In this document: positions 13,525 through 57,693 of the stretch, in pieces
How the letters are laid out: the number at the start of each line of letters is the position of its first letter
Numbering within the stretch: position 1 is the stretch's first letter
Assembly (NCBI GenBank): GCA_963755125.1
Contig: CAVWIP010000011.1
Span: 73,304-137,303, forward strand
Direction: 5' to 3'
Length of the DNA: 64,000 bases
Origin: an uncultured delta proteobacterium
GTDB taxonomy: Bacteria > Myxococcota_A > Polyangia > Fen-1088
Notes under the pieces: generated by a model
Database searches by the model: none
What the model saw: the letters and a program-made list of their open reading frames with translations, nothing else
Told to the model about the DNA's origin: nothing
Made by a program: the position numbers and the translations under genes

Positions 13525-15615
<2,091 letters not shown>

Positions 15616-15647
15616 GGAAATCCTCAGCAAGAACGCCGCGAAGCTGC

Positions 15648-37280: not shown

Positions 37281-37311
37281 TTTTTTTGCCAAAATATATC
37301 GACACCTGTCA

Positions 37312-38244: not shown

Positions 38245-38365
38245 CCGCGTGCAGGCACATTTCCTTCGCCAACGGTCTCACCTCAGGCACCTCAAGGCAC
38301 TTGTGGAAGTCCGATACCACTCGTTCATCGGCGATTTTTTTTGGGGCTGCTTTAGAAAGGAAACC

Positions 38366-38857: not shown

Positions 38858-38863
38858 AGATGG

Positions 38864-39610: not shown

Positions 39611-39630
39611 CGCAGAAGAGTTCTCTTGCC

Positions 39631-39660
39631 TTGACCCGTATATTCGGCTATACGAATATA
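39631..39660 (+). promoter_or_regulatory. Putative ars promoter/operator: TTGACC -35 followed by dyad TATATTCG-N6-CGAATATA
   Basis: Perfect 8-bp inverted arms, AT-rich, 10 nt upstream of the arsR2 start. Confidence 0.5.
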
Positions 39661-39670
39661 TGGGTGACGC

Positions 39671-40084
39671 ATGAAAGACGCGGCTCTGTTCTTCAAGATT
39701 CTTGCCGACGAGGCACGGCTCAAGATCATCTGGCTGCTCTTTCACCATGACGAGCTGTGCGTGTGCGACGTCATGGCGGCGCTCGGCATCACGCAATCCA
39801 AGGCTTCGCGGCACCTGGCCACGCTCAAGCACGCGGGTCTGGTGACCGACCGGAAGGACGGTCTTTGGTCGCACTACGCGCTCCGGCCGGCGAAAGACGG
39901 GCTGGCCCAAACCCATCTCGAACTTCTGCGGCGCAGCCTGGCCGACAGACCTGATGCGGCTTCGCTTCTGAAGACGCTGCGCCGTTGGCTTCACGGCAAG
40001 AACCGCAGCGTGGCCTGCGCCAAAGCCTCCGCCCGTGCCGCCAAGAGGAAGACCACGACACGGCAACGAGGGGCAGCTCGATGA
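39671..40084 (+). CDS. arsR: ArsR/SmtB family transcriptional repressor (copy 2)
   Basis: [44 protein letters not shown], with the ELCVCD As(III) site. Confidence 0.85.
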
Positions 40085-41160
40085 CTCGTCAGACGGCAGC
40101 AACTCAGGGCGTAACGAAGGGGCTGTCGTTTCTTGACCGCTTTTTGACGGTTTGGATCTTCCTCGCCATGGCGGTTGGAGTTGGCGGCGGGTATCTGTTC
40201 CCCGGCATTGTCCCTCTAGTCAATCGATTCAACGTTGGGACGACCAACATCCCCATCGCCATCGGTCTCATCCTGATGATGTACCCGCCGCTAGCCAAGG
40301 TCCGCTACGAGGAGATGGGGCCGGTCTTCCGCAACTTCAAGGTGCTCGGGCTTTCGCTCATCCAGAACTGGGTGATCGGTCCGATCCTGATGTTCGGTCT
40401 GGCCGTGCTCTTCCTGCACGACAAGCCCGAGTACATGGTTGGGCTCATTCTGATCGGCCTTGCCCGCTGCATCGCCATGGTCATCGTGTGGAACGATTTG
40501 GCCAAGGGCGACAGCGAGTACTGCGCCGGCCTTGTTGCCCTCAACTCGATCTTCCAGGTGCTCTTCTTTTCGGTCTCCGCCTACGTCTTCATCACCATTC
40601 TCCCGACCTGGTTCGGCCTGAACGGCGTGCTGGTGAACATCACCATCGGCGAGATCGCCAAGACCGTCTTCATCTACCTCGGCATCCCCTTCATCGCCGG
40701 GGTGGTCACGCGGTTCTCGTTGATCAAGTTGAAGAGCAAGGACTGGTATCATACGGCGTTCATCCCGAAGATCAGCCCCATCACGCTCATTGCGCTGCTT
40801 TTCACCATCCTGGTGATGTTCTCGCTCAAGGGCGCATACATCGTGCAGCTTCCGTTTGACGTCGTGCGGATCGCCATCCCGCTGCTCATCTACTTCGTGT
40901 TGATGTTCTTCCTCTCCTTCTTCATGTCGAAGAAGGTGGGCGCGACCTACGGCCAGGCGACGACGCTGTCATTCACGGCGGCCTCTAACAACTTCGAGCT
41001 CGCCATCGCGGTAGCCATCGCGACCTTCGGGATTAACCACGGCGCCGCCTTCGCTGCCGTCATCGGCCCGCTTGTGGAGGTGCCAGTCATGATCGGTCTG
41101 GTCAACGTCGCGCTCTGGCTGGGGCGTAGGTACTACCGCACGCAGGAGGCTTCCACATGA
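40081..41160 (+). CDS. acr3: ACR3 family arsenite efflux transporter
   Basis: About 10 TM helices. N-terminal [13 protein letters not shown]...[12 protein letters not shown] is typical of Acr3. ATG overlaps the arsR2 stop (ATGA). Confidence 0.85.
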
Positions 41161-41573
41161 AGGGCATCCTTTTCCTTTGCGTGGCCAACTCGGCCCGCAG
41201 CCAGATGGCCGAGGGGATTGCCCGAACATTGGCCCCGGCGGGAACCAAGGTATGGTCTGCTGGCTCGCGCCCCACCGGCGTTCGGGCCGAGGCGATCGCG
41301 GTGCTCAAGGAAATCGGCATAGACATCTCTGAACAGCGGGCGAAGGCAGTCGCGGAGATCCCGGCGGCCGAGGTCGACACGGTCATCACCCTGTGCGGCG
41401 AGGAGGAGTGCCCAGTGTTTCTCGGAAAGGCCACGCGACTGCATTGGGGCTTGCCTGATCCTGCGGCGGCGAAGGGATCGGAAGCGGAGCGCCTGGACGC
41501 CTTTCGCAAGGTGCGCGACGAACTGCGCCGGCGGATCGCTGACCTCCTTGCGCAATTTGCATCGAGCAGGTGA
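41157..41573 (+). CDS. arsC: Arsenate reductase, LMW-PTP type (copy 2)
   Basis: [20 protein letters not shown] has the C-x5-R P-loop. Overlaps the acr3 stop. Confidence 0.85.
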
Positions 41574-41671
41574 TGATGGTCCTTGGATTGCAGCACCGAT
41601 TGCCTCTCCCCTGCAGCCACGATGCAGGGGCTCATCGCCCTGCTCCTTGCCAAGAACGAATACGCCCCACT

Positions 41672-42487
41672 ATGAGTACCGCTCGTCATCTGCTCGCGCT
41701 GGCTTGTGTGCTTGTCACTGTCGCATGCTCGAGCCGGACTAGAAACAGCGCCGCGTCCCACGTTGGCGGCGCACACGCCGCCGCCGCAACGGCTGCGCCA
41801 ACCACTGATGAAGCCGCCGTCTCAAATGGACAGATGGTGGCAGCGCACGATCCATCCCACCCGCCCATCGACTGTCCCCTGCGCAAGCAGGGCCTCGACT
41901 CGGCCCAACTGCGGCCATTCAAAGACACCGCACGCTACATAGCGTTTCTCGAACGCCCTGACCGGGCTGCCTGGCAGAAGCCCGATGCAGTGGTGGCGGC
42001 TCTGGGGCTGACCGGCAAGGAGATCATCGTCGATATCGGAGCCGGCTCTGGCTATTTTTCTTTCCGACTTGCGCGAGCCGTGCCGCAAGGAAAGGTGATC
42101 GCGCTGGACGTGGAGCCCGAGATGATCCGCCACGTCCACCACAAGGCGATGACCGAGGGTGTGCGCAATGTGCAGGTGGCCTTCGCCAAACCCGACGATC
42201 CCGGCGTCCCTTTGGAGGCTGACCTCGTCTTCATGTGCGACGTGCTTCACCACATCCAGGATCGCCCAGCATGGCTGGCCAAGCTCGCCAAGGAGATGCA
42301 CACGGGAGCCCGGCTTGCGCTGGTCGAGTTCAAAGAAGGCGAGCTGCCCGAGGGTCCGCCGGAGGCGGTGAAGCTATCGCGGGCACAACTCGTGACTCTG
42401 GTCACCGGCGCCGGCCTCGCACTCGACAGCGAAAAGCCGGATCTGCTCCCGTACCAGACCTTTCTCGTCTTCCGCAAAGCGCGCTGA
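41672..42487 (+). CDS. Lipoprotein-signal class I SAM-dependent methyltransferase
   Basis: Signal/lipobox LLALACVLVTVAC|SS. SAM motif IVDIGAGSGYFSF...VIALDVEPEM. The track ORF starts at 41570. Confidence 0.6.
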   Translation: MSTARHLLALACVLVTVACSSRTRNSAASHVGGAHAAAATAAPTTDEAAVSNGQMVAAHDPSHPPIDCPLRKQGLDSAQLRPFKDTARYIAFLERPDRAAWQKPDAVVAALGLTGKEIIVDIGAGSGYFSFRLARAVPQGKVIALDVEPEMIRHVHHKAMTEGVRNVQVAFAKPDDPGVPLEADLVFMCDVLHHIQDRPAWLAKLAKEMHTGARLALVEFKEGELPEGPPEAVKLSRAQLVTLVTGAGLALDSEKPDLLPYQTFLVFRKAR

Positions 42488-42650: not shown

Positions 42651-43427
42651 TCATTGCAAAGAAGGGCCAGCGGCCGTGCCCAGGACGGTCGGTAAGGAAA
42701 ACAGTCTGCGGGCGAATGACGTGGGCGGGGCTTTGCGCACGTCGCCCAGCAAACCGCAAGCGACCACCTGACCCTTTTCAAGCACCGCCACGCGGCTGGC
42801 AAGGGCTTCGACATCGGTGGCGTCGTGGGTGACGAGAATGGTGGGCAAGCCGAGGGAACGAATGGACTCGGCCAGGAACGCGCGCACCTCGACGCGGGCC
42901 TCGACATCTAGCGAAGCCGTGGGCTCATCGAGCAGCAGCGCCTTGGGAGAGGAAGCCAGTGCCCGCGCGAGTGCGACCCGCTGCCGTTCACCGCCGGAAA
43001 GCTGCGATGGATTCCGCCCGGCCAGATTGCCGATTGCGAAACGCTCTAGCCACGTCATGGCCTCGTCGCGCCGTTGCTTTGCGCTGGCCCGCTGCGAACG
43101 ACACGCGAGCGCGAAGGCGACGTTATCGATGGCGGTGAGATGGGGAAACAGTCCAAAGTCCTGTGGCAGGTAGGCAAGGTGGCGATCTTCAGTGGGAAGA
43201 TCGATGGCCAGAGCCGCATCGAAGAGAACCTCGTCGGACAGCACGATGCGGCCGCGCTCAGGCCTGCGCAGACCCAGGACGGTCAGCAGCAAGCTGGTCT
43301 TGCCCGACCCGTTCGGCCCGACCAGGGCCAGCAGCTCGGCACTAACCTCCAGTGAGGCTTGCAGCGAGAATGCTCCCAGTGTGGCTTGCACGGCGATGGA
43401 GAGTCGAGGAACGGGATTTCCCGTCAT
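42651..43427 (-). CDS. modC: Molybdate ABC transporter ATP-binding protein
   Basis: Walker A GPNGSGKTS, signature LSGGERQRV, Walker B LLLDEP. Lies in an operon with modB and modA. Confidence 0.8.
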   Translation of the reverse strand: MTGNPVPRLSIAVQATLGAFSLQASLEVSAELLALVGPNGSGKTSLLLTVLGLRRPERGRIVLSDEVLFDAALAIDLPTEDRHLAYLPQDFGLFPHLTAIDNVAFALACRSQRASAKQRRDEAMTWLERFAIGNLAGRNPSQLSGGERQRVALARALASSPKALLLDEPTASLDVEARVEVRAFLAESIRSLGLPTILVTHDATDVEALASRVAVLEKGQVVACGLLGDVRKAPPTSFARRLFSLPTVLGTAAGPSLQ

Positions 43428-44257
43428 GGCGTCGCCGCCCCACGCGCGGCTTCAAATCCGCGATTGAATCGCCGCAAGACGAGCAAGAGAGCAAAGGCGA
43501 ACACGACCAACAAGAGCGACAAAGCCTGCGCGGTATGGATGTCGAGTTCCAGAGCGGTGTAAATCGCGAGCGGCAGGGTCTGCGTCTTTCCCGTCATGTT
43601 CCCCGCGAACATCAACGTGGCACCAAATTCCCCCAGCGCGCGTGCCCAGCTCATGGCCGCCCCACCGATCAGCCAGGGGCGGGCGAGCGGTAGCGCCACT
43701 CGAAAAAACAGGCGCGGCGGCGAGGCGCCCAGGCTTCGCGCCACGGCCAGCAAATTGGGATCCAACCGGCCAAAGGCCTGCACCGCGGCCTGCAGGAAGA
43801 ACGGTGCCGAAACAAAGACCTGCGCCATGATCACTGCGACCACGCTGAAAGCAGGCGTCCAGCCCAGGCGTTCGAGGATTCCACCGAAGAGTCCGCGTCG
43901 CCCGAAGGCGAGGAGCAGCGCAATGCCGCCCACTGCGGGCGGAATCACCACGGGAAGCTGCAACAGGATCTCCAGCCAGCGCGCCGAACGCCAGCGCGAA
44001 CGCGCCAGCCACCAGGCGAGAGGTGTGCCACCCACGACCACCAACACAACCGAGATCAGAGTCGTTCCAAGGCTCAGGCGCAGCGCGGGCCAGGTCAAGG
44101 AACAGCCGAGACCACGCCAGATGGTTTCGGGCCCACCGTCGAGAACCAGGGCCACGAAGGGCAGTACGATGAAGAGCAACAAGAGGCCGCCCATGCCCAG
44201 CATGACCGCGCTGTACAGGCGACGACTTCTCGCCCGAGACAGAACCGTTTGGCTCAC
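43424..44257 (-). CDS. modB: Molybdate ABC transporter permease
   Basis: 6 TM helices with an EAA-like loop (ARSLGASPPRLFFRVALPLARP). 4-nt overlaps with both neighbours. Confidence 0.8.
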   Translation of the reverse strand: MSQTVLSRARSRRLYSAVMLGMGGLLLLFIVLPFVALVLDGGPETIWRGLGCSLTWPALRLSLGTTLISVVLVVVGGTPLAWWLARSRWRSARWLEILLQLPVVIPPAVGGIALLLAFGRRGLFGGILERLGWTPAFSVVAVIMAQVFVSAPFFLQAAVQAFGRLDPNLLAVARSLGASPPRLFFRVALPLARPWLIGGAAMSWARALGEFGATLMFAGNMTGKTQTLPLAIYTALELDIHTAQALSLLLVVFAFALLLVLRRFNRGFEAARGAATP

Positions 44258-45063
44258 TTCTTCCCTTGTTGCTCGACCTGGTTGAAGCCGGCCTCGACCA
44301 ACGCCTCTTGCCCTTCCTTGGACAGGACAAGTTTCACAAATGCGCGCGCCAGATCGGGATGAGGCGCGGCCTTCAAGACAGCGATCGGGTACTCGGCCAC
44401 GATGTTGATCTGCTTGGGAATCTCGATGATCTGGACCTTGTCGGGCATGGTCAACGCGTCGGTCTTGTACACGATACCGGCGTCGGCTTCACCCAACGCA
44501 ACCTTGGTCAATACCTGCCGCACGTTCAGCTCGCGCGAGCGCACTCGCGCAAGGATCTGTTCGTGGAGGGACTTGCCGTAGAGCTTCTCAGACGCCGCAA
44601 AGATGGCCTCGGTGTAGGCCCCGATCGGCACCTCGGCCGCACCCACCACCAGGTGTGTGGTCTTGGGCAGATCCGCGAAGCTGCGCAATTTGGCCGGGTT
44701 GTTCTTGGGCACGACCACGACTGGCAGATTGCGAGCGAAGACCACTGGCTCGACAACCACCTCTCTATCTGCCAGCAGCTTCATGTGCTTCCAGTCTGCC
44801 GAGGCAAACACGTCGACCTTGGCACCCTGTTCAATCTGCACGCGCAAATCCTGGCTGCCTGCGAAGTTGAAACGAACCTTCGAGTTTGGGTGGCGCTTCC
44901 CGAAAGTCAGCGCGACGTTCTGCAAAACCTCGTGCAGCGACGCGGCCGCATACACCACGACCTCCTGCGCCTCGCCGTCACTCGCCCGAATTGTAGAAAG
45001 TGGCGCAATCGAACAGGCGCCAACCAGGGCTATGACAGCGAATTCGCGACGATTCATGCACAC
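44254..45063 (-). CDS. modA: Molybdate-binding periplasmic protein
   Basis: VVVYAAASLHEVLQNVALTF...FAGSQDLRVQIEQGAKVDVFASAD parallels E. coli ModA (VFAAASL...SS..LARQIEAGAPADLFISAD). Signal peptide present. Confidence 0.85.
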   Translation of the reverse strand: MCMNRREFAVIALVGACSIAPLSTIRASDGEAQEVVVYAAASLHEVLQNVALTFGKRHPNSKVRFNFAGSQDLRVQIEQGAKVDVFASADWKHMKLLADREVVVEPVVFARNLPVVVVPKNNPAKLRSFADLPKTTHLVVGAAEVPIGAYTEAIFAASEKLYGKSLHEQILARVRSRELNVRQVLTKVALGEADAGIVYKTDALTMPDKVQIIEIPKQINIVAEYPIAVLKAAPHPDLARAFVKLVLSKEGQEALVEAGFNQVEQQGKK

Positions 45064-45329: not shown

Positions 45330-45375
45330 TATTTGACGTTCCGGCCTTGCGCAAGCATATTTGACGTGATGTCAA
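45330..45375 (+). promoter_or_regulatory. Divergent mod promoter region: direct repeat TATTTGACGT x2 (28-bp spacing) plus dyad TTGAC-N5-GTCAA
   Basis: Lies between the minus-strand small-ORF/modABC operon and the regulator gene on the plus strand. AT-rich. Confidence 0.45.
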
Positions 45376-46550
45376 GCAAACCTGACACGGCGAAAACGGG
45401 CAAGTCGCCCACGATTCGCAGCTCGCTGAAGGAGTTTCGCCTGGCTCGCGGGCTGAGCCAGCTTGAGCTGGCGAGCAAGATCGGCCTGTCGCGGCAGAGC
45501 CTGTGCGCGTTGGAGGGCGGCCATGTGGTCCCAGGGACGGACGTCGCACTCCGCCTCGCCCTGGTTCTCGGCTGTCGGATCGAGTCCTTGTTTTGTCTCA
45601 ACCTTCCGCCGACTTCGCTGCAGGCGACTATCGCGGCCGCGCCCTCGGCGCTCGAGTCAAGCGGCCCACGTGTCTCACTGGCTGAGATCGACGGGCGGTG
45701 GGTCGCGCATCCCATCGATCCGCGGCGCAGCGAGTCCCTTTTCCGTGCTGCCGATGGCCTGGTGGTTCCTTGGCCGCGGCCGCGCGGCAGCGCACGAACA
45801 GTTTGCATCGAGCCGCTGGGAGACATTGAGACTGTCCGCCGGCGGCTGGTGGTCATGGGCTGTGCGCCAGCGCTGGGGATGCTCGCCGCAAGGCTCGGTC
45901 AGGAGCCGGCAGGGATCCATATCTCGTGGGTGCAGGGCTCGAGCATGGCGGCGCTCGATGCTCTCGCGAGAGGCGAGGTACACATCGCCGGCCTTCACCT
46001 GTGCGACGAGGCGACCCATGAATTCAACGTCCCGTTCGTTCGACGCGCGCTTCCAGGCCGCGCGATGCTTTTCGTCAACTTCGCCTCGTGGGAGCAGGGA
46101 ATCGTCGTTCGTGCTGGCAATCCGCTCGGGGTCCGGGGCGCGGAAGATCTCGTGAATCCAAGAATCCGTCTGGTCCAGCGTGAGCCAGGTGCGGGAGCGC
46201 ACAAGCTGCTCGAACAAGCGCTCAGAGCCAAGCGGGTGCCATTGGGGACTGTGCGCGGTCGGGGAGGCGTGGCCCTCGGACATATGGAAGTCGCTCAGGC
46301 GATCGCCATGGGCGCAGCCGACGCGGGAATCGCTATTCGGGGCGCTGCGGCTGCCTTCGGGCTGGGATTCGTTCCGCTCGCGGTGGAGCGTTTCGATCTG
46401 GTGATTCCTCGTGTACTGGCAACCGATCCGAGGGTCGAGCGTCTAGTGGACGCGCTGGGGAGCACGACCTTCCGGCGCGAACTGGACACCGTGGGCGGGT
46501 ACATCACGCACGAGTCAGGGCAGCAGGTCGGTGAGACCCGCGCCCGTTGA
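45369..46550 (+). CDS. XRE-type HTH transcriptional regulator with C-terminal periplasmic-binding-protein-like (PBP_like) domain
   Basis: HTH segment LKEFRLARGLSQLELASKIGLSRQSLCALEGG. The C-terminal ~250 aa resemble a substrate-binding fold. The track start at 45333 would overlap the operator repeats; the ATG at 45369 was chosen. Confidence 0.65.
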   Translation: MSSKPDTAKTGKSPTIRSSLKEFRLARGLSQLELASKIGLSRQSLCALEGGHVVPGTDVALRLALVLGCRIESLFCLNLPPTSLQATIAAAPSALESSGPRVSLAEIDGRWVAHPIDPRRSESLFRAADGLVVPWPRPRGSARTVCIEPLGDIETVRRRLVVMGCAPALGMLAARLGQEPAGIHISWVQGSSMAALDALARGEVHIAGLHLCDEATHEFNVPFVRRALPGRAMLFVNFASWEQGIVVRAGNPLGVRGAEDLVNPRIRLVQREPGAGAHKLLEQALRAKRVPLGTVRGRGGVALGHMEVAQAIAMGAADAGIAIRGAAAAFGLGFVPLAVERFDLVIPRVLATDPRVERLVDALGSTTFRRELDTVGGYITHESGQQVGETRAR

Positions 46551-46665: not shown

Positions 46666-46869
46666 ATGAACCTCAGCGCGCGAAATCAGCTCAAGGGGAC
46701 CATCAAGAGCATCAAGAAGGGAGACCTCATGGCCGAGGTGGTCGTCGAGATTAGCGGTCAGGATCTCGTGTCGGTCATCACCGCAAGCTCGGCGGACCGT
46801 CTGGGCCTCAAGACGGGCGATGCGATCGCCGCGGTCATCAAGGCCACCGAAGTGATGATCGCGAAGTAG
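46666..46869 (+). CDS. mop: Mop/TOBE molybdate-binding domain protein
   Basis: MNLSARNQLKGTIKSIKKGDLMAEVVVEISGQDLVSVITASSADRLGLKTGDAIAAVIKATEVMI is a classical 67-aa Mop domain. AGGAGAGGGGA RBS before the ATG. Confidence 0.85.
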   Translation: MNLSARNQLKGTIKSIKKGDLMAEVVVEISGQDLVSVITASSADRLGLKTGDAIAAVIKATEVMIAK

Positions 46870-46982
46870 CCCGCCGGGCGAGCGCCAGCGTTTCGCGAAA
46901 CAGCAGATCCTCGGTTTGCCTCCGGCGGGATGAGCGGAGCCGCAGCCCGAGAGGTTTCGATGTACTATCTCTCGCTCCATTC

Positions 46983-48593
46983 ATGAGCACCGATCTCTCC
47001 CAACTTGGCACCTGGAATCCCGGCGGGGAGCCGGCGTGTTTCGACGAAGGCGCGCTGGCTGCCGCCGTAGCGCGCGTGCGCGAGCCTGCGCATGTCGTGC
47101 GCGAGGGATCGCGTGGCCGGCTGGGCGTGGGCTTTGGGGGGCGGGTTTCACCCGACGGCGTGGGCTATCCCCTGCTCGGCACTCTGCCGGGGCTCTATCC
47201 CGAATGGCTCGGGGATCGTTCGTTCTGCGAAACCCATGGCGTGCGCTTCCCCTACGTGGTGGGCGAGATGGCGCGCGGGATCACCACCGCGCGCATGGTG
47301 ATCGCCATGGCGCGCGCGGGAATGATGGGGTTTTTCGGCGCGGGCGGGCTTGCCCCGGCCCAGGTGGGCAAGGCTCTCGATGAGATCGAGGCCGCGCTTG
47401 GCAAGGACGGGCCAGCCTGGGGCGCCAACCTGATCCATTCGCCGCACAGCCCTGATCTGGAAAACGTGATCGCCGATCTCTATCTTTCCCACGGCGTCCG
47501 TCGCCTCTGCGTCTCGGCTTTCATGGGACTGACGCCCGCGGTGGTTCTGTGTGCGGCCAGGGGACTGCACCGCGATCCCCAGGGTCGCATCCAGCGCCGC
47601 CAGCACATCTTCGCCAAGCTGTCGCGGCCCGAGGTGGCCGAGCCGTTCATGAGCCCAGCGCCGCCCGCGCTGCTGGACCCTCTCGTACGCGCGGGCAAGC
47701 TCACCACCGAGGAAGCCACCCTGGCCGCGCATGTCCCGGTGGCTGAAGACATCACGGCCGAGGCCGATTCGGGCGGGCACACCGACAACCGGCCGCTCGC
47801 GGCTTTGCTCCCGGTGCTGCTCACCCTGCGCGATCGGTTACGGCAGCAGCATCGCTACCCTCGCCCCATCCGCGTGGGCGCGGCTGGCGGTTTGGGCACG
47901 CCCGCCGCAGTGGCCGCGGCCTTTTCTCTCGGCGCCGCCTATGTGGTCACTGGCTCGGTCAACCAGGCCGCGGTCGAGTCGGGCCTGGCCGAGGATGGAA
48001 AGCGCATGCTCGCGGAAGCGGGCCTGGCCGACGTGATGATGGCCCCTTGCGCGGACATGTTCGAGCTGGGGGTCAGGGTGCAGGTCCTGCGCCGCGGAAC
48101 CATGTACGGCGGCCGCGCGCAGCGCTTGTACGATCTCTATCGTTCCTACGACAGCCTGGAGGCGCTGCCGGCAGAAATGCGCCAGCGTATGGAGAGCGAG
48201 ATTCTGGGCGCGAGTTGCGACGAGGTTTGGTCCGAGGTGCGGCACTTCTTCGAGACGCGCGACCCGCGCGAACTGGAGCGAGCGCAGCGCGAACCCAAGC
48301 ACCGCATGGCCCTGGTGTTTCGCTGGTACCTGGGCATGGCCAGCAAGTGGCCGGTGGTGGGCGAGTCGCGCCGGCGGCTCGACTACCAGATCTGGTGCGG
48401 CCCGGCCATGGGCGCGTTCAACGATTGGGTGCGCGGATCATTTCTGGAGGCGCAAGCGAATCGCAGCGTGGTGCAGATCGCGCTCAATCTCCTGGAAGGC
48501 GCGGCGGTCATCACGCGCGCCCAGCAACTGCGCACGATTGGCGTTGCGATGCCGGCCGCGGCGTTCAGCTTCACGCCCCGATTGCTGGGTTGA
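46983..48593 (+). CDS. PfaD-family enoyl reductase (FMN-dependent nitronate-monooxygenase-like; trans-acting ER of PUFA/PKS systems)
   Basis: FPYVVGEMARGITTARMVIAMARAGMMGFFGAGGL ... GANLIHSPHSPDLE parallels PfaD (YAYIAGAMANGI..MVVAMGKAGMLGFFGAGGL ... FNLIHSP). Confidence 0.75.
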   Translation: MSTDLSQLGTWNPGGEPACFDEGALAAAVARVREPAHVVREGSRGRLGVGFGGRVSPDGVGYPLLGTLPGLYPEWLGDRSFCETHGVRFPYVVGEMARGITTARMVIAMARAGMMGFFGAGGLAPAQVGKALDEIEAALGKDGPAWGANLIHSPHSPDLENVIADLYLSHGVRRLCVSAFMGLTPAVVLCAARGLHRDPQGRIQRRQHIFAKLSRPEVAEPFMSPAPPALLDPLVRAGKLTTEEATLAAHVPVAEDITAEADSGGHTDNRPLAALLPVLLTLRDRLRQQHRYPRPIRVGAAGGLGTPAAVAAAFSLGAAYVVTGSVNQAAVESGLAEDGKRMLAEAGLADVMMAPCADMFELGVRVQVLRRGTMYGGRAQRLYDLYRSYDSLEALPAEMRQRMESEILGASCDEVWSEVRHFFETRDPRELERAQREPKHRMALVFRWYLGMASKWPVVGESRRRLDYQIWCGPAMGAFNDWVRGSFLEAQANRSVVQIALNLLEGAAVITRAQQLRTIGVAMPAAAFSFTPRLLG

Positions 48594-48606
48594 CCACCGC
48601 TGTTTC

Positions 48607-49275
48607 ATGACACCGCCGACGCGCATCGTGCACAACGCCGACGCCATCGCGTGGCTACAGGCACAGGGCAAGCTGGCGGGCGCGAGCGTGATAACGTCGC
48701 TGCCAGATGTTTCAGAGCTGCCGCGCCTGGGGTTGGACGGCTGGCGGTGCTGGTTTGAAGACGCGGCTGTCCTGGTGATGACGTGTACGCCAGACGAAGG
48801 CGCAGCCATCTTCTTCCAGAGCGACATCAAGCGCGGCGGTTTGTGGCTCGACAAAGGAGCCCTGGTCAGCCGTGCCGCCGAGCGCGCGGGCATGAGCCAG
48901 CTGTTTCACAAGATCGTCTGTCGCAAGCCGCCCGGCACTTCCAGCTTCGGCCGGGCGACCTACGCGCACATGCTGGGCTTTGCCCGTGGACTACCCTGCG
49001 GCCAGAGACAGGCGCGCATCGACGTGTTGCCCGACGGAGGTTTTCAGCCCGGCCCGAAGTCGATGGGCGTCCACGCTTGTCTCGACGCCTGCCGCTTCGT
49101 CCAGGCCGAGACCACCACGCGCACTGTGGTCGATCCCTTCTGCGGCTGGGGCACAGTCCTGGCCGTGGCCAATGCCCTGGGCCTAGACGCCGTGGGCGTG
49201 GACATCGCGCCGCGCATGTGCGGCCGGGCGCGCAAGTTGCGGCTCGAACTGGAGACCGGTCAAATGACTTCGTGA
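48607..49275 (+). CDS. DNA-methylase N-4/N-6-like protein with degenerate catalytic motif (SLPD in place of DPPY) and motif-I-like DPFCGWGT
   Basis: The N-terminus RIVHNADAIAWLQ...GASVITSLPDVS follows the beta-class amino-MTase layout (gDa..l..l....vdliitDPPY) but lacks the PP(Y/F). VVDPFCGWGTVLAVANALGLDAVGVDI resembles motif I (DPFxGSGTT). Confidence 0.45.
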   Translation: MTPPTRIVHNADAIAWLQAQGKLAGASVITSLPDVSELPRLGLDGWRCWFEDAAVLVMTCTPDEGAAIFFQSDIKRGGLWLDKGALVSRAAERAGMSQLFHKIVCRKPPGTSSFGRATYAHMLGFARGLPCGQRQARIDVLPDGGFQPGPKSMGVHACLDACRFVQAETTTRTVVDPFCGWGTVLAVANALGLDAVGVDIAPRMCGRARKLRLELETGQMTS

Positions 49276-49470
49276 CCGCCCAACCTTGACGAACCCAGTT
49301 GCGGTATCACAAGCAAATGCACTCGGGCCTACGGTGAGGGTGGGTGGTCTCGAACGCGTTCCCGTTTTGTACCCGACGATGCGATTCCTGCCGGCGACGA
49401 AACGGATCGCCTATTCCGATGGGGCTGCAAGACTTATCGCGACCTATTCAGCAGCCGGCAACTCCTGGGG

Positions 49471-50694
49471 TTGGAGTTCATCTGTCGGCAGGTCGCGACG
49501 CAGACGGACTGTCGAATTCGCAAGGCGCTCGCCACCAATCTGTCGGATCTCCTTCGCTATCAGAACATGTTGTGCCGCTACGACACGATGGCGTTGAAGT
49601 CGCTCGACGTGTTCTCTGTTCACGGTTTCCCTATCGGATTTGTTCATGCCGAATCGAATCTCCTCGGCATCAGGGGCAGCGGAACCAGCACTGTCGTGGG
49701 TAGCGGGGGCTGGTTGAACATCACGGACAAGTACGGGAAGGCCAAGGCCTACTGTGAGAAACCCTTCGAGATCCGACACCGAGGGGCCGCTAAGGTGGTC
49801 GTCCCCATCCCCGGGGAGCACATCGGGTCAGCTCGCTCCCACGAACGTGGGGCTGCCATGCAGCGCAAGATTGCGCTCCACTGCGAAAATGCTGAGTCAT
49901 GCAAACTGGGCGACGCAACTATCGACGCCGTGTTCACGGATCCGCCCTATCTGGGAAACGTCCAGTACGCGGAGCTGATGGACTTCTGCTACGTTTGGCT
50001 ACGAAAGCTCGTAGGCCCGGAACACGCGGCTTTCAAGGGTGCGTCGACCAGGAACGAAAACGAGCTGACGGGAAACGCCAACATGGGACGCGGATTGGAG
50101 CAGTTCGCGACGGGTCTGTCCCGCATCTTTCGCCGCATGGGCAAGGCTCTGAAGCCCGGCGCTTCCCTTGCGTTCACGTTCCACCACAACTTCATCGAGG
50201 CGTATCACGCTGTTGCAGTGGCAGTTCTCGACTCCGGGCTCGCTTGCACGGCGAGCATCCCTTGCCCTGCGGAAATGGGCGCCTCGATTCACATTAGCGG
50301 AACCGGCTCCTCAATCGTCGACACGGTGTTGGTGTGCAGAAGCACTGGCACGGTGCCTCGACGGTCGATCTGTGATTCCCCAGAAAGTGTGGCGGAGTTG
50401 GTGCGGCGCGATCTCGACCTGCTCGTGCGTGGCCACGTGGAAGCGACCAAAGGCGACATTCGGTGCATAGCCGCAGGTCATCTAACCCGACTCGCCATTT
50501 GGTTCAATCGCAAGACTTGGGATCGAACTTTGCCGGCTCGGGAACGTCTTTCGCGCGTGGCCGCGTGGATCGCAACTCTGGGGGGAATGGACGCAGTTAC
50601 GCGGGCGCTTGAAAGCGACTACGCTGGCGCCGCGCATCTCCAGCGCCACCAGGCATGTGAACCAGAGGGCACCTATGCACAAGTATCCTTTTGA
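49471..50694 (+). CDS. Hypothetical protein with amino-methyltransferase motif IV (IDAVFTDPPYLGNVQYAELMDFCYVWLRKL); lower-GC island; possibly a fragment of a degraded large methyltransferase
   Basis: DPPY motif at aa ~160. Out-of-frame ORFs at 49286-49703 just upstream may be frameshifted fragments of the same gene. Confidence 0.4.
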   Translation: MEFICRQVATQTDCRIRKALATNLSDLLRYQNMLCRYDTMALKSLDVFSVHGFPIGFVHAESNLLGIRGSGTSTVVGSGGWLNITDKYGKAKAYCEKPFEIRHRGAAKVVVPIPGEHIGSARSHERGAAMQRKIALHCENAESCKLGDATIDAVFTDPPYLGNVQYAELMDFCYVWLRKLVGPEHAAFKGASTRNENELTGNANMGRGLEQFATGLSRIFRRMGKALKPGASLAFTFHHNFIEAYHAVAVAVLDSGLACTASIPCPAEMGASIHISGTGSSIVDTVLVCRSTGTVPRRSICDSPESVAELVRRDLDLLVRGHVEATKGDIRCIAAGHLTRLAIWFNRKTWDRTLPARERLSRVAAWIATLGGMDAVTRALESDYAGAAHLQRHQACEPEGTYAQVSF

Positions 50695-50887
50695 AGTTGG
50701 CTTCGACCGGATCCGATTGATCGACTGTACACATCTCAGAGATTTTCGATCGAGGCGGAAGTAGGTCGCCAACGCCTTACGTGGAAGACGCCCGGCTGCT
50801 GCCATAGGCGCATGCAACCTGCCGCCAGCACGGGAGTCGTCATGGCCATGCGCGTTTGATGTAATATCGGTCCTCTCAACCCCCGCG

Positions 50888-52791: not shown

Positions 52792-53046
52792 GCACGTCCT
52801 TTCCCCGGCTATGGTATCACGGTCGCCAGAGGCACGGCGGGGCCTGTGTACGCACACCATTGGGCTGGCATCCTCTCGGTCGTATTGTAGTGGTCTTCCT
52901 TGCCGCCGGGCGCGTGGTGAATCTGGCCTGTGCTAGTATCGCCCAATGCGCTCGTTGACTGCCGCACCTCTGGCCTGTTCGTTTCAACGAGACTATTTGT
53001 TAAATGGCCCCGGCAAATCTTTCTTCCGGGCATAGCGGCGTCCGCG

Positions 53047-54975
53047 ATGGAGAAGAGTCAGTCGGTTTCTGCTAGGCATCGCATTGCATTGGCGCTGGTC
53101 CTGACGGGGCTGTCGCTGCTGCTCATCCGCGCCGCGCTGGTCGTCGATCTGCTGCCCACCAACGACGGGCCCCAGCACCTGTTCTCCAGCTACGCTGCGG
53201 TTCATTTGGACGACGCCGGCACCGGCTATTCCCGCTACCTGGAGGTCGGTACACCCAGCACCAGCCTGGGATTCGACGGTCTGTATCGTGCGCTGCTGGT
53301 CGCATTCGACTGGCGTCTGGCGCACCAGGTGGCCATCGCCATCATGGCGCTGGTGTGGGCCTGGGGTACGGTGGCCCTGGCCGGCGCACTAGGGAGAACG
53401 TGGCTGGGTTTGCTGGGGTTCGTGGCGGCGTACCAGTGGATCCTGTACATGGGGTTCTACTCGTTCTTCCTTTCGGCCGGCGTCGGGCTGTTCCTGGTGG
53501 CAGGCGCCTGCAGCGACCGAGCGCTGTCCACGCGACGGCACGTCCTGCTGGGAGTGGGCCTGCTCTGCCAGGTCCTGCTGCACGTGTTCCCCGCCCTGCT
53601 CACCGCCTTGGTCATGGCCATCGTGCTGTTCTTGCGCGCCCAGCCCGGCCGCCGCAGGGTCGAGCTCGCACGCATCGCCGCCATGACAACTCCGGTTGTC
53701 GTTCCTCTGCTGCTCTCTCTTCACGGCACGACCACGGTATTCGCGGGTCCGGCCGCTTCCCTGGGCGAGCGGCTGCTCTTGCTCGGGCAGGCCTTCGTGG
53801 GCGGACCCTCGTGGCGGGCATTCTCCCTGCCCTTACTGGCCGGGTGCGGGTTGCTGGCCACGCTGCTGCGGTGGCGGGCCGGCGCGAAGACGGCCGGCGT
53901 TTCATCGCCTTCGTCGGCTGAGAAGGGGCTGGCGCTGGCGGGCGTGTTGCTGGTCGCTCTGGCGGTCGCGCTGCCCCTCAGCCTGCCGACGTGGCAATTC
54001 TTCTGCGTTCGCTTCTCGCCCATGGGCATCACCATTCTGGCGCTGCTGCTGCCCATCGAGCGCCTGCAACGGCTGTCGCTGGTCTGGGCTGCGCGCATGG
54101 GTTTGCTGGTGCTCGCGTGCACCTCGCTGGCGTGGTCGAGCTGGTTCCACGTTCTGTTGCGACGCTGGGCCGCAGACGCCCTGTCGGGCCTGGACGCCCC
54201 TATCAGGCGATCGGGCCCCCGCCTCGATCTCACCCTCGCCAAGGAATTGCCAAGCCCATGGTTTCCCTTCCTCGCTCCCCTGCACGGGCTGGTCCCGCTT
54301 TACGCCACCGCGCAGGGCGGAACCCCCTCACGCATGTTCATCGGTGCCTCGGACAAACATATCCTGCAATATCGCCGCCACCCGGCTGGCCCCATCCTGG
54401 ACATTCCCCCGCCCGAGGAAATCCAGTCCCTCAACCATTTTCCCGACCGATCCCGCCGCCTGCGGCAGCTCGATGACTTGCTCAGCTACGCTCCCGGCTA
54501 CGACGACATCGTCCTGTACGGCTCGGCCGCGGACGTGGAGGCGCTCACCCGACGTGGCTTTCACATCGACTTCTCACGGGGCGCGCTGGCTATCGCCCGC
54601 TTTCGCGCCTGTCCGGTCGACATCGAGCTGGTCGAGCGCAGCCCTACCCGCCCAGCGGTGTTCCTCGAGATAGCCTGGCATCGACACGGGCGCATCCGGG
54701 CGATGCCCAGCTTGCCGGCCGGCGCCCCCGACAGCGGAAGTCGCCGCGTGCACATCCCGGACAGTCCCTGCGGCCCGTTCTGGTTCCGGGTGGTGTTCGA
54801 CCGCAATGGCGACGGAAGGTCCAGCCCGGGCGATGCCGTGTGCGCCGAGGCCTCGGCCGAGGCCTTTGTCCGCGTCGAGCCGAGCGACGCGCCCCGGCTG
54901 GTCAAGTGCACGGAACCCGAATCAGCCGGGGCCGCCGGTCACGCCGGCCCGTCAGGCTCTCCTGACAGCCGCTGA
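53047..54975 (+). CDS. Hypothetical polytopic membrane protein with C-terminal soluble domain
   Basis: ATG at 53047 (MEKSQSVSARHRIALALVLTGLSLLL). About 10 TM helices followed by a ~250-aa Pro/Arg-rich soluble region. Confidence 0.45.
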   Translation: MEKSQSVSARHRIALALVLTGLSLLLIRAALVVDLLPTNDGPQHLFSSYAAVHLDDAGTGYSRYLEVGTPSTSLGFDGLYRALLVAFDWRLAHQVAIAIMALVWAWGTVALAGALGRTWLGLLGFVAAYQWILYMGFYSFFLSAGVGLFLVAGACSDRALSTRRHVLLGVGLLCQVLLHVFPALLTALVMAIVLFLRAQPGRRRVELARIAAMTTPVVVPLLLSLHGTTTVFAGPAASLGERLLLLGQAFVGGPSWRAFSLPLLAGCGLLATLLRWRAGAKTAGVSSPSSAEKGLALAGVLLVALAVALPLSLPTWQFFCVRFSPMGITILALLLPIERLQRLSLVWAARMGLLVLACTSLAWSSWFHVLLRRWAADALSGLDAPIRRSGPRLDLTLAKELPSPWFPFLAPLHGLVPLYATAQGGTPSRMFIGASDKHILQYRRHPAGPILDIPPPEEIQSLNHFPDRSRRLRQLDDLLSYAPGYDDIVLYGSAADVEALTRRGFHIDFSRGALAIARFRACPVDIELVERSPTRPAVFLEIAWHRHGRIRAMPSLPAGAPDSGSRRVHIPDSPCGPFWFRVVFDRNGDGRSSPGDAVCAEASAEAFVRVEPSDAPRLVKCTEPESAGAAGHAGPSGSPDSR

Positions 54976-55221
54976 TGGCGTGCGGGTGCAGACAGTGCGA
55001 CACCTTGCTATTGTTGCAAGGAGTGAAACAGGCTGCGGGGCACGAATGACGTCACGCCACGCTTGCCAGCGGAGTGGTGACACAGGATGGCCTATGCGTG
55101 CGCTAGTGCCTCGGCGCCCTTCGGATGCCGGAACTTGCGATGACTCCCGCAGGCTGGCTCCTCAATGAAACCAGCCCGCTTCAGATCAGCAATCAGCTCC
55201 CGAAGTTTCCGCGGCACTGGA

Positions 55222-55293: not shown

Positions 55294-57693
55294 TCACCCC
55301 AACTTCACGTCGACCCTAACTTCTCTGCTACCCGCGATTGGTAGTGGCACCACGCAGCCAGCCATGGCATTACCATCGACAGTCAGCTGGACAGCGGAGC
55401 CCGCGCCAGCCCGCTTGACCTCGATGAGATAGCGCACGCCTCGATACACGCGCGTCGCCTTGAACCCCTTCCACTTCTCGGGAATGGCCGGCGCAATCAT
55501 CAACCCGGTGTGAGTGGGCCGGATGCCGAGAATCCACTGTGTGCCGGCCACGTAGGTCCATGAAGCCGTGCCAGATAGCCACGCATTGCGGGCATAGCCA
55601 TATTGTTTGTGTTCTGGGCCAGTGACGTTGCCACAGTAGACATAGGGCTCGACCTTCATGCAGTCCACATCCCGCCGCATGAAGGGCGTGATCTGCAAGT
55701 AGTACTGCATGGCCCGCTCTGCCATGCCGAGCTTGGCCGCAGCCACAATGGCCCAGGTGTTGGCGTGGCAGAAGATGCCGCCATTCTCCTTGGCACCGGG
55801 CGGATAGGTCGTGGTTCCGCGCACCCGCTCGTCGCCCTCGGTGTAGGCCGGCCAGAGTAGGGCCAGTCCGTACTTGCTGTTGAGCTTGTCGTGCGCCTGT
55901 TGCATAGCGCGCCGGCCGCGTTCGACCGGGGCCGCATCGCCGATGACCGCCCAGGTCTGCGTGTTGAGCGCGATGCGGTGGTGGGCTTCGCTCTTCACGC
56001 CGATGGGCTTGCCTTCGTCGTCGAAGGCGCGCGCGTACCAGTCGCCGTCCCAGGCCACCTGATTGAGGATGGCCGCCATCTCAGCGTGCAGGCCGCGGAA
56101 GCGCTTCGCCTCATCGGTCTTGTGCATGTGGTCCGCCAGGTCAGCCAGATCGAGCAGGGCGCGGCAGAACTGTTGCGCGCACCATACGCTCTCGGCCTTG
56201 CCGCTGCCGTGGTCCACGTTCATCGTATCGTCCCAGTCGGCAAAACCGATGCGGGGCAGGCCCTGGGGACCCCGGTGCTGCAGGGTGAAATCGATCGCGC
56301 GCAGCATGTGGTTCCACACACTGTCGCTGCCGCCATCGGTGTAGTCGATTGTCTCATCAAGATAGGCGAGATCCCCGGTTTCGCGCAGATAGGCGCAGAC
56401 CCCGAGGATCAACCAGAGGTGGTCGTCACAGAACCACTGCGGCCAGGCCGGGAATTCGGCGGCCAGGCCAGGCCCACCCTCGCCGGTCAAGGGCAACACC
56501 TGATGCCAGGTATGCCCATCCTTGTATTGCAGATGCCACAACATGCTGAGCGTGGCCCGCGCGCGGTCAGCGGCGTTGTGCACGGTGCCCAATGTGTCTT
56601 GCGCCGAATCGCGCGTGCCCATGCCCCGGCCGGTGCCGGTCTCATAGGCTGAAACGAAACGCGACCAGAAGAGCGTGGTACGACACTGGATGGGATTCCA
56701 GACGTTCAACATGGCGTTGACCACCGGGTCGGGCGTTTCGACGGTGAAGCGGCCCAGGTAGTCGTTCCAGTCGGCGCGCAGATCGCTAAACGCGGCAACC
56801 ACGTTCTCAGGATCGCGGAAGTGCGCCACCACCGCGGGGATGCGTGCCGGCTCGTCGGTCACGCCCATGACAAAGACGATCTCCTTCTCTTGCCCGGGGC
56901 TCAGGGTCACACTGTGGCACAGCGATCCGATATTGTTGCCCCTGGGTGCCTCGATGTTGCTGGGCTTTCCCCTCTCGACCACCTCGGGGTTGGACAGATC
57001 CCGCCAGCGGCCGACAAAGATCTCGCGATCGGTATCGAAGCCGGCCGGCTTGACACTGGAAGCAAAAAAGTTGGTGGTCGGCGCGAAGCGGGTCTTGGAG
57101 GCGATGATTCCGTCCTTGACCCTGGCCTCGAGAATGTGCTGGCACCAATCGAGGTTGAGCTGATCGCCAAGGGCATCGCGGAAGCTGAATTCCACATAGG
57201 AGAAAGTGCGCAGCTTGCGGGTCTTCCTGCCGGTGTTCTTGAGCTTCAGGACCCACAATTCACAAGGGCAGGATTCGTCTTTCGGCGCACGTGGAACGAA
57301 ATACAGCAGGCTGGCGGCAATTCCATTGTGGCTGCTGGCAATTCGAGTGTAGCCGGCGCCGTGACGGCATTCATAGGAGGCGAGCTTCACCCCCGGCGTG
57401 GGTTGCCAGGTCGGGCTCCAGAATCTCCCGCTCTCCATGTCGCGGATGTAAACGTAGCGACCCGGCTGATCCATGGGGATGGCGTTGTAGCGGTAGCGGG
57501 AAACGCGGCGGTTCTTGGGATCGCGGTCGAAGGAAAAGCCGCCGCCAGTGTTCGAGACGATGCCGCCGTAACGACCCTCGCCGATGTAGTTGAACCAGGG
57601 CGTGGGCGTGTCGGGCCGGGTGATGACGTACTCACGCGCCTCGGCGTCGAAGAATCCGTAGGGGTTGGAAAGGGCCTTGGTCTTGCTGGTCAT
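55294..57693 (-). CDS. GH94 family cellobiose/chitobiose phosphorylase
   Basis: MTSKTKALSNPYGFFDAEAREYVITRPDTPTPWFNYIG parallels the cellobiose phosphorylase N-terminus ([26 protein letters not shown]). 799 aa. Confidence 0.85.
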   Translation of the reverse strand: MTSKTKALSNPYGFFDAEAREYVITRPDTPTPWFNYIGEGRYGGIVSNTGGGFSFDRDPKNRRVSRYRYNAIPMDQPGRYVYIRDMESGRFWSPTWQPTPGVKLASYECRHGAGYTRIASSHNGIAASLLYFVPRAPKDESCPCELWVLKLKNTGRKTRKLRTFSYVEFSFRDALGDQLNLDWCQHILEARVKDGIIASKTRFAPTTNFFASSVKPAGFDTDREIFVGRWRDLSNPEVVERGKPSNIEAPRGNNIGSLCHSVTLSPGQEKEIVFVMGVTDEPARIPAVVAHFRDPENVVAAFSDLRADWNDYLGRFTVETPDPVVNAMLNVWNPIQCRTTLFWSRFVSAYETGTGRGMGTRDSAQDTLGTVHNAADRARATLSMLWHLQYKDGHTWHQVLPLTGEGGPGLAAEFPAWPQWFCDDHLWLILGVCAYLRETGDLAYLDETIDYTDGGSDSVWNHMLRAIDFTLQHRGPQGLPRIGFADWDDTMNVDHGSGKAESVWCAQQFCRALLDLADLADHMHKTDEAKRFRGLHAEMAAILNQVAWDGDWYARAFDDEGKPIGVKSEAHHRIALNTQTWAVIGDAAPVERGRRAMQQAHDKLNSKYGLALLWPAYTEGDERVRGTTTYPPGAKENGGIFCHANTWAIVAAAKLGMAERAMQYYLQITPFMRRDVDCMKVEPYVYCGNVTGPEHKQYGYARNAWLSGTASWTYVAGTQWILGIRPTHTGLMIAPAIPEKWKGFKATRVYRGVRYLIEVKRAGAGSAVQLTVDGNAMAGCVVPLPIAGSREVRVDVKLG

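Follow-up and report, generated by a model that had tools for sequence, protein, structure and literature searches.

Adjacent genes that each seem to carry one half of the amino-methyltransferase signature raise the question of whether they are parts of a single enzyme or have come together by accident. Such a pair occurs in a 64,000-nucleotide stretch of contig CAVWIP010000011.1 (GenBank assembly GCA_963755125.1) from an uncultured delta proteobacterium of the Myxococcota_A, hereafter the window, where three open reading frames (ORFs), all on the + strand, fill positions 46983–50694: a PfaD-like flavin mononucleotide (FMN) enoyl reductase gene (PfaD), a methyltransferase-like gene with an unusual catalytic position (ORF2), and a gene with a canonical motif IV (ORF3). 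The first-pass annotation of the locus offered a degraded restriction-modification or defence remnant, a split or inactive methyltransferase, or a novel FMN-reductase-plus-methylase modification system. Comparison with relatives indicates that the two ‘half methyltransferases’ are very probably unrelated neighbours, an intact ORF2 and the tail of a decayed restriction-modification methylase, joined by a deletion. What that annotation had observed was largely right, while its interpretation was right only in the restriction-modification remnant, and there for ORF3 alone, as ORF2 belongs to an intact family.

The sequence features that prompted the question were mostly present as described. ORF2 reads VITSLPDVSE at residues 28–37, with SLPD at the catalytic position, and DPFCGWGT near its C-terminus (residues 176–183). 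ORF3, usually called as a 407-aa gene from a TTG start at 49471 (49471–50694), carries FTDPPYLGNVQYAELMDFCYVWL, which includes the DPPY of motif IV, and the GC content drops as reported, from 0.66–0.71 at 46750–49250 to 0.58–0.61 at 49250–50750. PfaD and ORF2, thought to overlap or abut by 14 nt, are instead separated by a 13-nt spacer between the PfaD stop (48593) and the ORF2 ATG (48607). Out-of-frame ORFs do lie upstream of ORF3 (49286–49597 and 49344–49703), though they had no family matches and represent overlapping-frame noise.

A truncated DUF1156-type methylase downstream of ORF2

The methylase frame of ORF3 is open from 49276 without a break for 472 codons, in the same frame as ORF2 and separated from it by a single TGA (49273–49275). 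Using tblastn, one unbroken methylase match was found from 49336 or 49345 to 50691, with no methylase-family homology before 49336. The translation of 49276–50691 had thousands of protein matches, nearly all of ~736 aa and 57–64% identical, that were named as DNA methylase or DUF1156 domain protein and came from several phyla. ORF3 is 61–64% identical to two of these proteins, P0124 (from residue 285) and P0122 (from residue 305), through to the last residue, the full proteins being 736–759 aa long, and corresponds to the C-terminal 61% of a 736-aa methylase. The full-length relatives have a DUF1156 motif (KWFARRPG) and motif I (DPFMGGGT; ADPFMGGGTPLIEANRLGCDVIGYDINP) at residues 30–80, followed by cysteine-rich zinc ribbons, with both motifs falling within residues 15–124 of P0124; no KWFARRPG, DPFMGGGT or zinc ribbon was found in the window copy. 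Full-length 736-aa orthologues thus hold DPFMGGGT and DPPY in one polypeptide, the arrangement that the first-pass annotation had itself named as telling against its reading of ORF3. The frameshifts it had suspected upstream of ORF3 were not seen with tblastn: the gene is truncated, and a frameshifted pseudogene was rejected on the basis of the single unbroken match with no change of frame. A tail without half of its Rossmann fold would be expected to be inactive.

Amongst known systems, the nearest are the DUF1156-type methylases (NCBIfam NF042963; PADLOC HmaB of the Hma system, PglX-like and DUF1156_MTase), with which ORF3 and its 736-aa relatives share the motif IV region and the downstream half of the Rossmann fold, the full-length relatives also sharing the N-terminal DUF1156 motif and motif I. 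ORF3 matched HmaB (1e-11) and DUF1156_antiphage (NF042963; 2.8e-8), with FTDPPY present, but only in the middle of these ~960-aa profiles (positions 560–730), and scored 32.4 bits against the NF042963 whole-protein cut-off of 1000. Unlike these methylases, the full-length relatives are ~736 aa rather than 940–970 aa and have as their partner a single ~345-aa PD-(D/E)XK-like gene, in place of the Hma helicase and ATPase or of DUF499 and DUF3780, and the window copy lacks the N-terminal 284 residues. A remnant of an Hma or DUF1156-DUF499-DUF3780 defence system was rejected, as the companion genes are absent and the full-length relatives form a shorter, two-gene cassette.

Two deletions reconstructed from a related genome

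The origin of the truncation could be traced in a related genome, L017, with an ORF2 that is 85% identical and is followed by 3.1 kb of other DNA and then by the methylase (residues 1–736 at 13000–15193) and an overlapping ~345-aa gene (residues 2–344 at 15183–16204). Three alignment blocks link the two loci: window 46983–49343 to L017 8376–10740 (86% identity), window 49357–50714 to L017 13863–15216 (94% over the last part, 50650–50714 to 15152–15216), and window 50713–50771 to L017 16159–16217 (90%, with a 2-nt CC overlap between the second and third blocks). Because of these three blocks, the window can be described as the L017 arrangement lacking two segments. Deletion 1 (L017 10741–13862, 3.1 kb) removed two minus-strand ORFs and methylase codons 1 to ~288, and a GGTGG repeat is present at both of its break points in L017. 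Deletion 2 (L017 15217–16158, 942 bp, in frame) removed codons ~14–327 of the second gene, with CC microhomology at the junction, and left a 29-codon stub, MHKYPFEVGFDRIRLIDCTHLRDFRSRRK, in which MHKYPFEVGFDRI matches the N-terminus of the partner gene in L017 and at three other loci (L012, L098 and L101). With a single related genome, the boundaries of both deletions could be placed with a precision of a few bases.

The pair of methylase and overlapping ~345-aa gene recurs in three unrelated contexts (L012, L098 and L101). The partner gene has an invariant block, GFDQxPDF-IP-EF-P---IEAKITEDDGTARDK, which constitutes a PD-(D/E)XK signature and suggests that the product is a putative nuclease; the part lost in deletion 2 holds the invariant PDF...IEAK motif. 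The pair is most economically read as a mobile, Type II-like restriction-modification cassette, now decayed in the window. It resembles Type II restriction-modification cassettes in being a mobile methylase with an overlapping PD...ExK-motif gene, in its occurrence in unrelated contexts and in a GC content below that of the host, and it resembles their decay products in having an inactivated nuclease-like gene and a truncated methylase. Nuclease inactivation and methylase truncation are the decay order expected from restriction-modification addiction. The cassette differs from them in that its partner gene had no Pfam, PADLOC or PDB sequence match, and the endonuclease role is putative.

The sequence of events would then have been as follows. 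PfaD and ORF2 would have formed a conserved two-gene operon of one Myxococcota subclade, downstream of which sat the lower-GC mobile cassette of a 736-aa DUF1156-type methylase and its overlapping ~345-aa PD-(D/E)XK gene. The 942-bp in-frame deletion would have gutted the nuclease-like gene, and the 3.1-kb deletion would have taken the N-terminal 284–288 codons of the methylase, with its DUF1156 motif, motif I and zinc ribbons, together with two neighbouring genes, setting the DPPY-bearing tail 69 nt after the ORF2 stop. The presence of motif I in ORF2 and motif IV in ORF3 would be a coincidence of the 3.1-kb deletion. The relic itself is an ordinary product of restriction-modification decay.

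The relic was found in L001–L006, L104 and L105. Many contigs of one population encode an identical ORF2 protein, always in this arrangement. No relic was found downstream of ORF2 in relatives with an 81–91% identical ORF2, in which PfaD-ORF2 is kept and the downstream genes differ. Compared to L017, the relic has a ratio of nonsynonymous to synonymous substitution rates (dN/dS) of 0.17 and a dS of 0.37 (0.45–0.47 for PfaD and ORF2), which would place the cassette in the common ancestor and under constraint for most of the time since, and would thus make the truncation recent.

Several further features of L017 were observed. Just after the cassette, at 16279–16826, the PfaD 3′ end is repeated in degenerate form, together with the initial 69 nt and final ~120 nt of ORF2 (corresponding to window 48260–48675 and 49130–49252). 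Direct repeats of the PfaD-ORF2 junction therefore flank the L017 cassette, and may be a trace of island insertion or duplication. An rve_3 transposase fragment lies at 20343–20672. Inside the 3.1 kb, an ORF at 11718–12512 on the − strand had weak PADLOC matches to the N-termini of PDC-M38A (1.9e-9) and PD-Lambda-5_A; an additional defence gene may have been part of the ancestral island.

ORF2 represents an intact family with an alternative catalytic loop

ORF2 is a member of an intact, independently conserved and widespread family without a dedicated Pfam or NCBIfam model. Among 5.8 billion proteins searched, there were 4511 homologues; almost all of the matches listed were 213–250 aa long and 70–91% identical, with several named as from Polyangia or Myxococcota. 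When the representatives of 50%-identity clusters were scanned exhaustively with HMMER, 556 clusters were identified at E < 1e-10. TSLPD, FFQSD, DK, FH-IVCR, GRA-Y-H and DPFCG-GT were invariant in 24 close homologues. Amongst 29 homologues down to 35% identity, P33, K83, R116, G180 and G182 were invariant, and S31, E37, D73, K102, R106, D139 and P177-F178-C179 were kept at ≥90%; within motif I, D176, P177, F178, C179, G180 and G182 are invariant or nearly so. The family signature can be written as T-S-L-P-D-x-S-E ... Q-[ST]-D ... D-K ... H-K-[IV]-x-x-R ... D-P-F-C-G-x-G-T. The TSLPDxSE-type pattern occurs once in the window, to which this search was limited, as a degenerate DNA pattern for TSLPDxxE holds ~23 bits and thousands of chance matches would be expected in a collection. 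Purifying selection acts on ORF2 (dN/dS 0.10–0.19 against six relatives), no plasmid homologues were found, and the family looks vertically inherited within the Myxococcota. In relatives without the relic, ORF2 has an unchanged C-terminus and stop (P0001 ends in GQRTS).

At the level of sequence profiles, ORF2 is recognisable as a methyltransferase only through motif I. The Pfam family N6_N4_Mtase (PF01555) matched residues 173–205 (33 aa) at 26.1 bits, below the 26.7 cut-off, PDB profile matches were restricted to residues 169–214, and an hhalign comparison of the family profile with Escherichia coli YhdJ aligned residues 170–213. Motif I is the only segment that such profiles align to N6_N4_Mtase, Trm-G10 and YhdJ, and it also aligns to motif I of TTHA0409. 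An AlphaFold2 (AF2) model (pLDDT 78, pTM 0.83) extended the likeness to essentially the entire protein: a Foldseek search of the PDB matched TTHA0409 (2zie; E = 4.5e-11, TM-score 0.70), a rotifer N4-cytosine methyltransferase, CcrM (6pbd), M1.HpyAVI (5hfj), M.BceJIV, M.RsrI (1eg2) and M.PvuII (1boo), with ~226 aligned columns for the five structures given here by PDB code. Like the beta-class DNA methyltransferases (PF01555; 2zie, 6pbd, 5hfj, 1eg2 and 1boo, matched at E 4.5e-11 to 1e-7), ORF2 has the circularly permuted Rossmann order, with a motif-IV loop near the N-terminus and motif I near the C-terminus, the overall fold (TM-score 0.55–0.70, E ~1e-10) and the D-P-F-x-G-x-G-T loop that binds S-adenosylmethionine (SAM), and it is close in size to M1.HpyAVI, a minimal beta-class enzyme. 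Unlike them, it has TSLPDxSE in place of (D/N/S)PP(Y/F/W), no recognisable HPTxKP-type segment before motif I, no restriction partner, a vertical-looking inheritance in the Myxococcota and a link to DTW-domain genes (described below).

In the AF2 model, a strand at residues 26–30 is followed by the loop SLPDVSE at the place where beta-class enzymes have (D/S)PPY. A local alignment of the N-terminal halves of ORF2 and YhdJ, which paired DVSE with DPPY, was not significant (score 32 compared to 27 ± 5 for shuffles); the modelled strand boundaries favour SLPD as the motif IV position, a register that sequence does not settle. In either register, and across the family, the catalytic (D/N/S)PP(Y/F/W) is absent. 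TSLPDxSE is a conserved alternative catalytic loop and not a sign of decay, and within this known fold ORF2 constitutes a new, unnamed branch.

The statement that each gene carries one half of the signature consequently has to be replaced: ORF2 has both motif positions of a complete fold, and ORF3 is what remains of an enzyme with a different permutation. When ORF2 was compared with the missing N-terminus of the methylase, the likeness was confined to the generic motif I (~30 residues), and the fission of one methyltransferase into ORF2 and ORF3 was rejected, with only this motif shared. Complementary-looking motif halves in adjacent genes can arise when a deletion abuts a decayed restriction-modification gene, and caution is warranted in their annotation.

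PfaD is an orphan with a narrow link to ORF2

The identification of 46983–48593 as PfaD-like was sound. The gene matched TIGR02814 at E = 1e-191 (637.6 bits, cut-off 449.25) over profile positions 2–443 of 444, with the Pfam domains NMO and FabD_helical_ins, and has a dN/dS of 0.12–0.18 against relatives. As the first-pass annotation had noted, PfaD has no partners for polyunsaturated fatty acid (PUFA) or polyketide synthesis nearby: no polyketide synthase (PKS) or PUFA megasynthase and no PKS domains were found in the 64-kb window, where the largest ORF encodes a ClpV-type ATPase of 885 aa, and an adjacent pfaA/pfa2 and pfaC/pfa3 with ketosynthase (KS), acyltransferase, acyl carrier protein (ACP) and dehydratase domains is absent.

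A metagenome scan for PfaD retrieved 80 loci, which were considered testable when they had ≥2 kb downstream. Of 24 loci with ≥75% identity, 16 were testable, and all 16 had ORF2 within 200 nt and none a same-strand ORF of ≥600 aa at the PfaD stop; six shorter loci in this group also had ORF2 downstream. Conversely, of 56 loci with 55–65% identity, 36 were testable, none had ORF2 within 200 nt, and 27 had such a large ORF, 21 of these with KS active-site motifs. In myxobacteria, the gene order is pfa1-pfa2-pfa3 (PMC8436480), and the 55–65% homologues lie directly upstream of KS-containing megasynthase genes in the same way that pfa1 precedes pfa2. The window PfaD is like the Pfa1 of PUFA synthases in its full-length match well over the cut-off, and unlike it in having no pfa2, pfa3 or PKS gene within 64 kb and in that ORF2 takes the downstream slot in its clade. 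It represents a clade-specific orphan lineage under purifying selection within a known family, and may act in trans as an enoyl-ACP reductase on a fatty-acid or polyketide carrier encoded elsewhere. For PUFA and PKS annotation, a smaller point is that a PfaD match by itself is no sign of a pfa cluster.

The pairing of PfaD and ORF2 is real but narrow, being confined to one Myxococcota (Polyangia-type) subclade; this leaves little room for an FMN-reductase-plus-methylase module as a general system. About 70 of 80 ORF2-bearing species genomes have no PfaD within 6 kb.

Possible function of ORF2

A more widespread, though still partial, association of ORF2 is with a DTW-domain gene (PF03942, ~1e-47). 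In 25 of 80 Myxococcota species genomes (75 with enough flank), a 397-aa DTW gene lies directly 3′ of the ORF2 homologue on the same strand (L023, L029, L033, L040–L044, L046, L050, L051, L053, L055, L056, L058, L060–L063, L066, L068, L073, L079, L088 and L090), and in L008 the ORF2 homologue and the DTW gene overlap by 4 nt. When neighbouring genes were clustered, the biggest group proved to be an antisense artefact of the DTW gene. A 638-aa protein found on seven contigs (P0376) has an ORF2-like domain (GIPDISE, DPFCGQGT) fused to a DTW domain; other ORF2-like fusions, each seen once, involved DUF309 or a GNAT domain of the RimJ/RimL type. Using SAM, DTW proteins transfer aminocarboxypropyl groups to tRNA (acp3U47) and rRNA (PMC7026641, PMC6895100). 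The gene 3′ of ORF2 in the 25 genomes is clearly a DTW-domain gene, as are TapT/TuaA (YfiP) and the DTWD2-type acp3U transferases, and the extra C-terminal 200 aa of the DTW partner fits the delta-proteobacterial DTWD2 members with an extra C-terminal domain described in the TDD-superfamily paper (PMC4275035). A term search of that paper returned no methylase association for DTW genes. Different from these systems, the window itself has no DTW gene.

Collectively, the conserved SAM loop and the replaced motif IV suggest that ORF2 modifies nucleic acids in a SAM-dependent manner and has a non-canonical acceptor site, its target not being a stacked exocyclic amine. Based on the DTW link, RNA is tentatively the leading candidate for the substrate, with a probability just short of even; DNA is a less likely candidate, with another substrate or a pseudoenzyme slightly ahead of it. 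It is doubtful, if conceivable, that members of the ORF2 clade act on tRNA or rRNA together with DTWD2-type aminocarboxypropyl transferases, methylating, for instance, acp3U or the nucleotide beside it. Were this so, the family would be a new group of RNA-modification enzymes derived from DNA amino-methyltransferases, and its viral copies would serve a related nucleic-acid modification.

Three observations weigh against an RNA substrate. There is no DTW gene next to ORF2 in the window’s own lineage, and the nearest solved folds are all DNA methyltransferases. Further, homologues that keep TS[LMP]P[DE]xxE are present without a DTW gene in the haloarchaeal tailed virus HCTV-2 (gp12; L184, KC292028.1 5141–5782) and on 12 IMG/VR contigs (L185–L196), all 32–39% identical to ORF2 over the full length. 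What merits retention is the ORF2 family itself, which is large, keeps its SAM-binding residues and has its catalytic loop swapped for another conserved one; the DTW link, if functional, would point to an unassigned RNA modification activity and offer a direct experimental handle, and is a modest residual lead.

Alternative explanations

Two alternatives would give ORF3 a present function. A split methyltransferase, in which ORF2 would supply SAM binding and ORF3 the DPPY motif through a heterodimer or read-through of the TGA at 49273–49275, draws on the shared reading frame, in which a single TGA is followed by C, on the resemblance of the ORF2 motif I to the one lost from the relic, and on the relic frame being open. 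It is nevertheless highly improbable: ORF2 is a complete fold alone and ends at the same stop in relatives without the relic; the adjacency comes from a 3.1-kb deletion seen in this species only; the 69 nt between ORF2 and the relic are native intergenic DNA; what is missing from the relic is some half of its Rossmann fold and not merely a loop; and the shared frame has a 1-in-3 chance expectation and was judged coincidental. ORF2 is found without ORF3 in all of the relatives examined except the window species and L017, where the two are 3.1 kb apart. It is also improbable that the methylase tail has been kept as a functional non-catalytic protein, such as a DNA-binding protein, decoy or sensor. 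The 472 open codons, the dN/dS of 0.17 and the (nearly) identical relic in ≥8 independent metagenome contigs would accord with retention; yet those contigs are one species-level population (99.6–100% identity), a gene that had functioned during most of the divergence and was truncated only lately would be expected to show a low dN/dS, most of the few changes within the population are nonsynonymous (2–3 compared to 0–1 synonymous, too few to decide), no ATG start lies near the junction and the longest ORF starts from a TTG, the partner gene was destroyed as well, and the configuration is absent from all other relatives.

The other two alternatives concern what ORF2 does. That PfaD and ORF2 form a two-enzyme pathway in their subclade, with a single lipid- or polyketide-like compound or a modified nucleotide as the shared substrate, would agree with the 0–31 nt gap between them in all 16 testable metagenome loci (and the six shorter ones) and in ~8 species genomes, and with the similar purifying selection on both genes. 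This pathway is unlikely in light of the absence of ORF2 from all 36 testable loci with 55–65% PfaD homologues, the scarcity of PfaD near ORF2 in other genomes, and the DTW gene being the recurrent partner of ORF2; adjacency kept in one young clade is what shared ancestry alone would give, and ancestry accounts for the pairing as well as shared function does. It is likewise doubtful that ORF2 descends from the TSPPY type of N4-cytosine enzymes and modifies the chromosome as an orphan DNA methyltransferase, although its top structural neighbours are all beta-class DNA methyltransferases, including N4-cytosine enzymes, the TS prefix of its loop resembles the TSPPY of the latter, the HCTV-2 homologue adjoins a ParB-nuclease/methyltransferase fusion gene and another methyltransferase, and further homologues lie on the 12 IMG/VR contigs. 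Set against this are the family-wide absence of the PP-aromatic platform for a flipped base, a length of 222 aa in which no target-recognition domain is evident, the vertical-looking inheritance without plasmid copies, and the DTW neighbourhoods and fusion.

Returning to an intact ORF2 beside a decayed restriction-modification tail, a number of observations run counter to it. The relic frame is still open for 472 codons, which a recent truncation would explain, and its dN/dS and dS imply that the truncation was recent or that the tail is partly constrained. The L017 sequence on which the intactness of the ancestral cassette depends has several frame changes, which occur even in the well-constrained PfaD and look like assembly indels. 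The ~345-aa partner gene, with no Pfam, PADLOC or PDB sequence match, is assigned as a nuclease by motif alone. PfaD and ORF2 are strict neighbours, 0–31 nt apart, in every member of the subclade, and may be functionally coupled in that clade. Lastly, the 80 Myxococcota genome loci were retrieved with peptide patterns that included TSLPD, and are no independent evidence of TSLPD conservation.

Coordinates and genomic surroundings

The positions of the elements discussed above are given in Table 1. The relic is neighboured in the window by a GT87-like gene, a rubrerythrin, an unknown gene and a GH94 gene, and no Rfam or tRNA features were found in the window.

Table 1. Features of the PfaD-ORF2-relic locus, in window positions.
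Feature	Position	Strand	Basis
PfaD/Pfa1-type FMN enoyl reductase, orphan, 536 aa	46983..48593	+	TIGR02814, Pfam
ORF2, beta-class-fold SAM methyltransferase-like, 222 aa, intact, uncharacterised family	48607..49275	+	Homologues, AF2, Foldseek
ORF2 loop at the motif IV position, T-S-L-P-D-V-S-E	48694..48717	+	Conservation in homologues
ORF2 motif I, DPFCGWGT, SAM-binding loop	49132..49155	+	Conservation, profile alignments
Native intergenic DNA 3′ of ORF2, read through by the open methylase frame	49276..49343	.	L017 alignment
Junction of deletion 1 (L017 10741–13862, 3.1 kb)	49343..49357	.	L017 alignment ends and resumes
5′-truncated relic (ORF3) of a 736-aa DUF1156-type DNA methylase, residues ~285–736	49345..50694	+	tblastn
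Canonical motif IV of the relic, DPPY	49939..49950	+	Read from sequence; aligns to DPPY of P0124 and P0122
29-codon stub of the second gene of the cassette (PD-(D/E)XK-type, ~345 aa)	50675..50764	+	L017 alignment; junction 50713/50714

Directly upstream of PfaD are a ModE-like regulator with helix-turn-helix and PBP_like domains (45333–46550) and a 67-aa TOBE/Mop gene (~46666–46869), the latter of which does not neighbour PfaD in relatives L010 and L013. They are preceded on the minus strand by a molybdate-type ABC transporter consisting of an ATPase (42651–43427), a permease (43424–44257) and a binding protein (44254–45063). An arsenic-resistance-like set occupies 34439–42487, with an ArsA-type ATPase (34439–36478), an Acr3/SBF permease (39985–41160), an LMWPc phosphatase-like ORF (41157–41573) and a class I SAM methyltransferase that is possibly ArsM-like (41570–42487); ArsR-type and DsrE genes lie upstream of the set according to the L001 gene calls.

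Four long ORFs (677–765 aa) at 52930–54975 (+), 59422–61719 (−), 18474–20543 (−) and 29280–31313 (−) had no Pfam family at the thresholds used. A 41-aa HicA-toxin-like fragment (~55092–55217, −; mapped from L001 16486–16611) is situated between the unknown 642–681-aa gene at 52930–54975 and a GH94 phosphorylase (55294–57693), and was called in some of the population contigs only. At the other end of the window, a type VI secretion system cluster includes TssF (281–2251) and the ClpV-type ATPase (3314–5971). Within this cluster, a 527-aa protein (7689–9272, +) combines CarboxypepD_reg, collagen triple-helix repeats and a C-terminal Hcp domain, an unusual architecture for Hcp.

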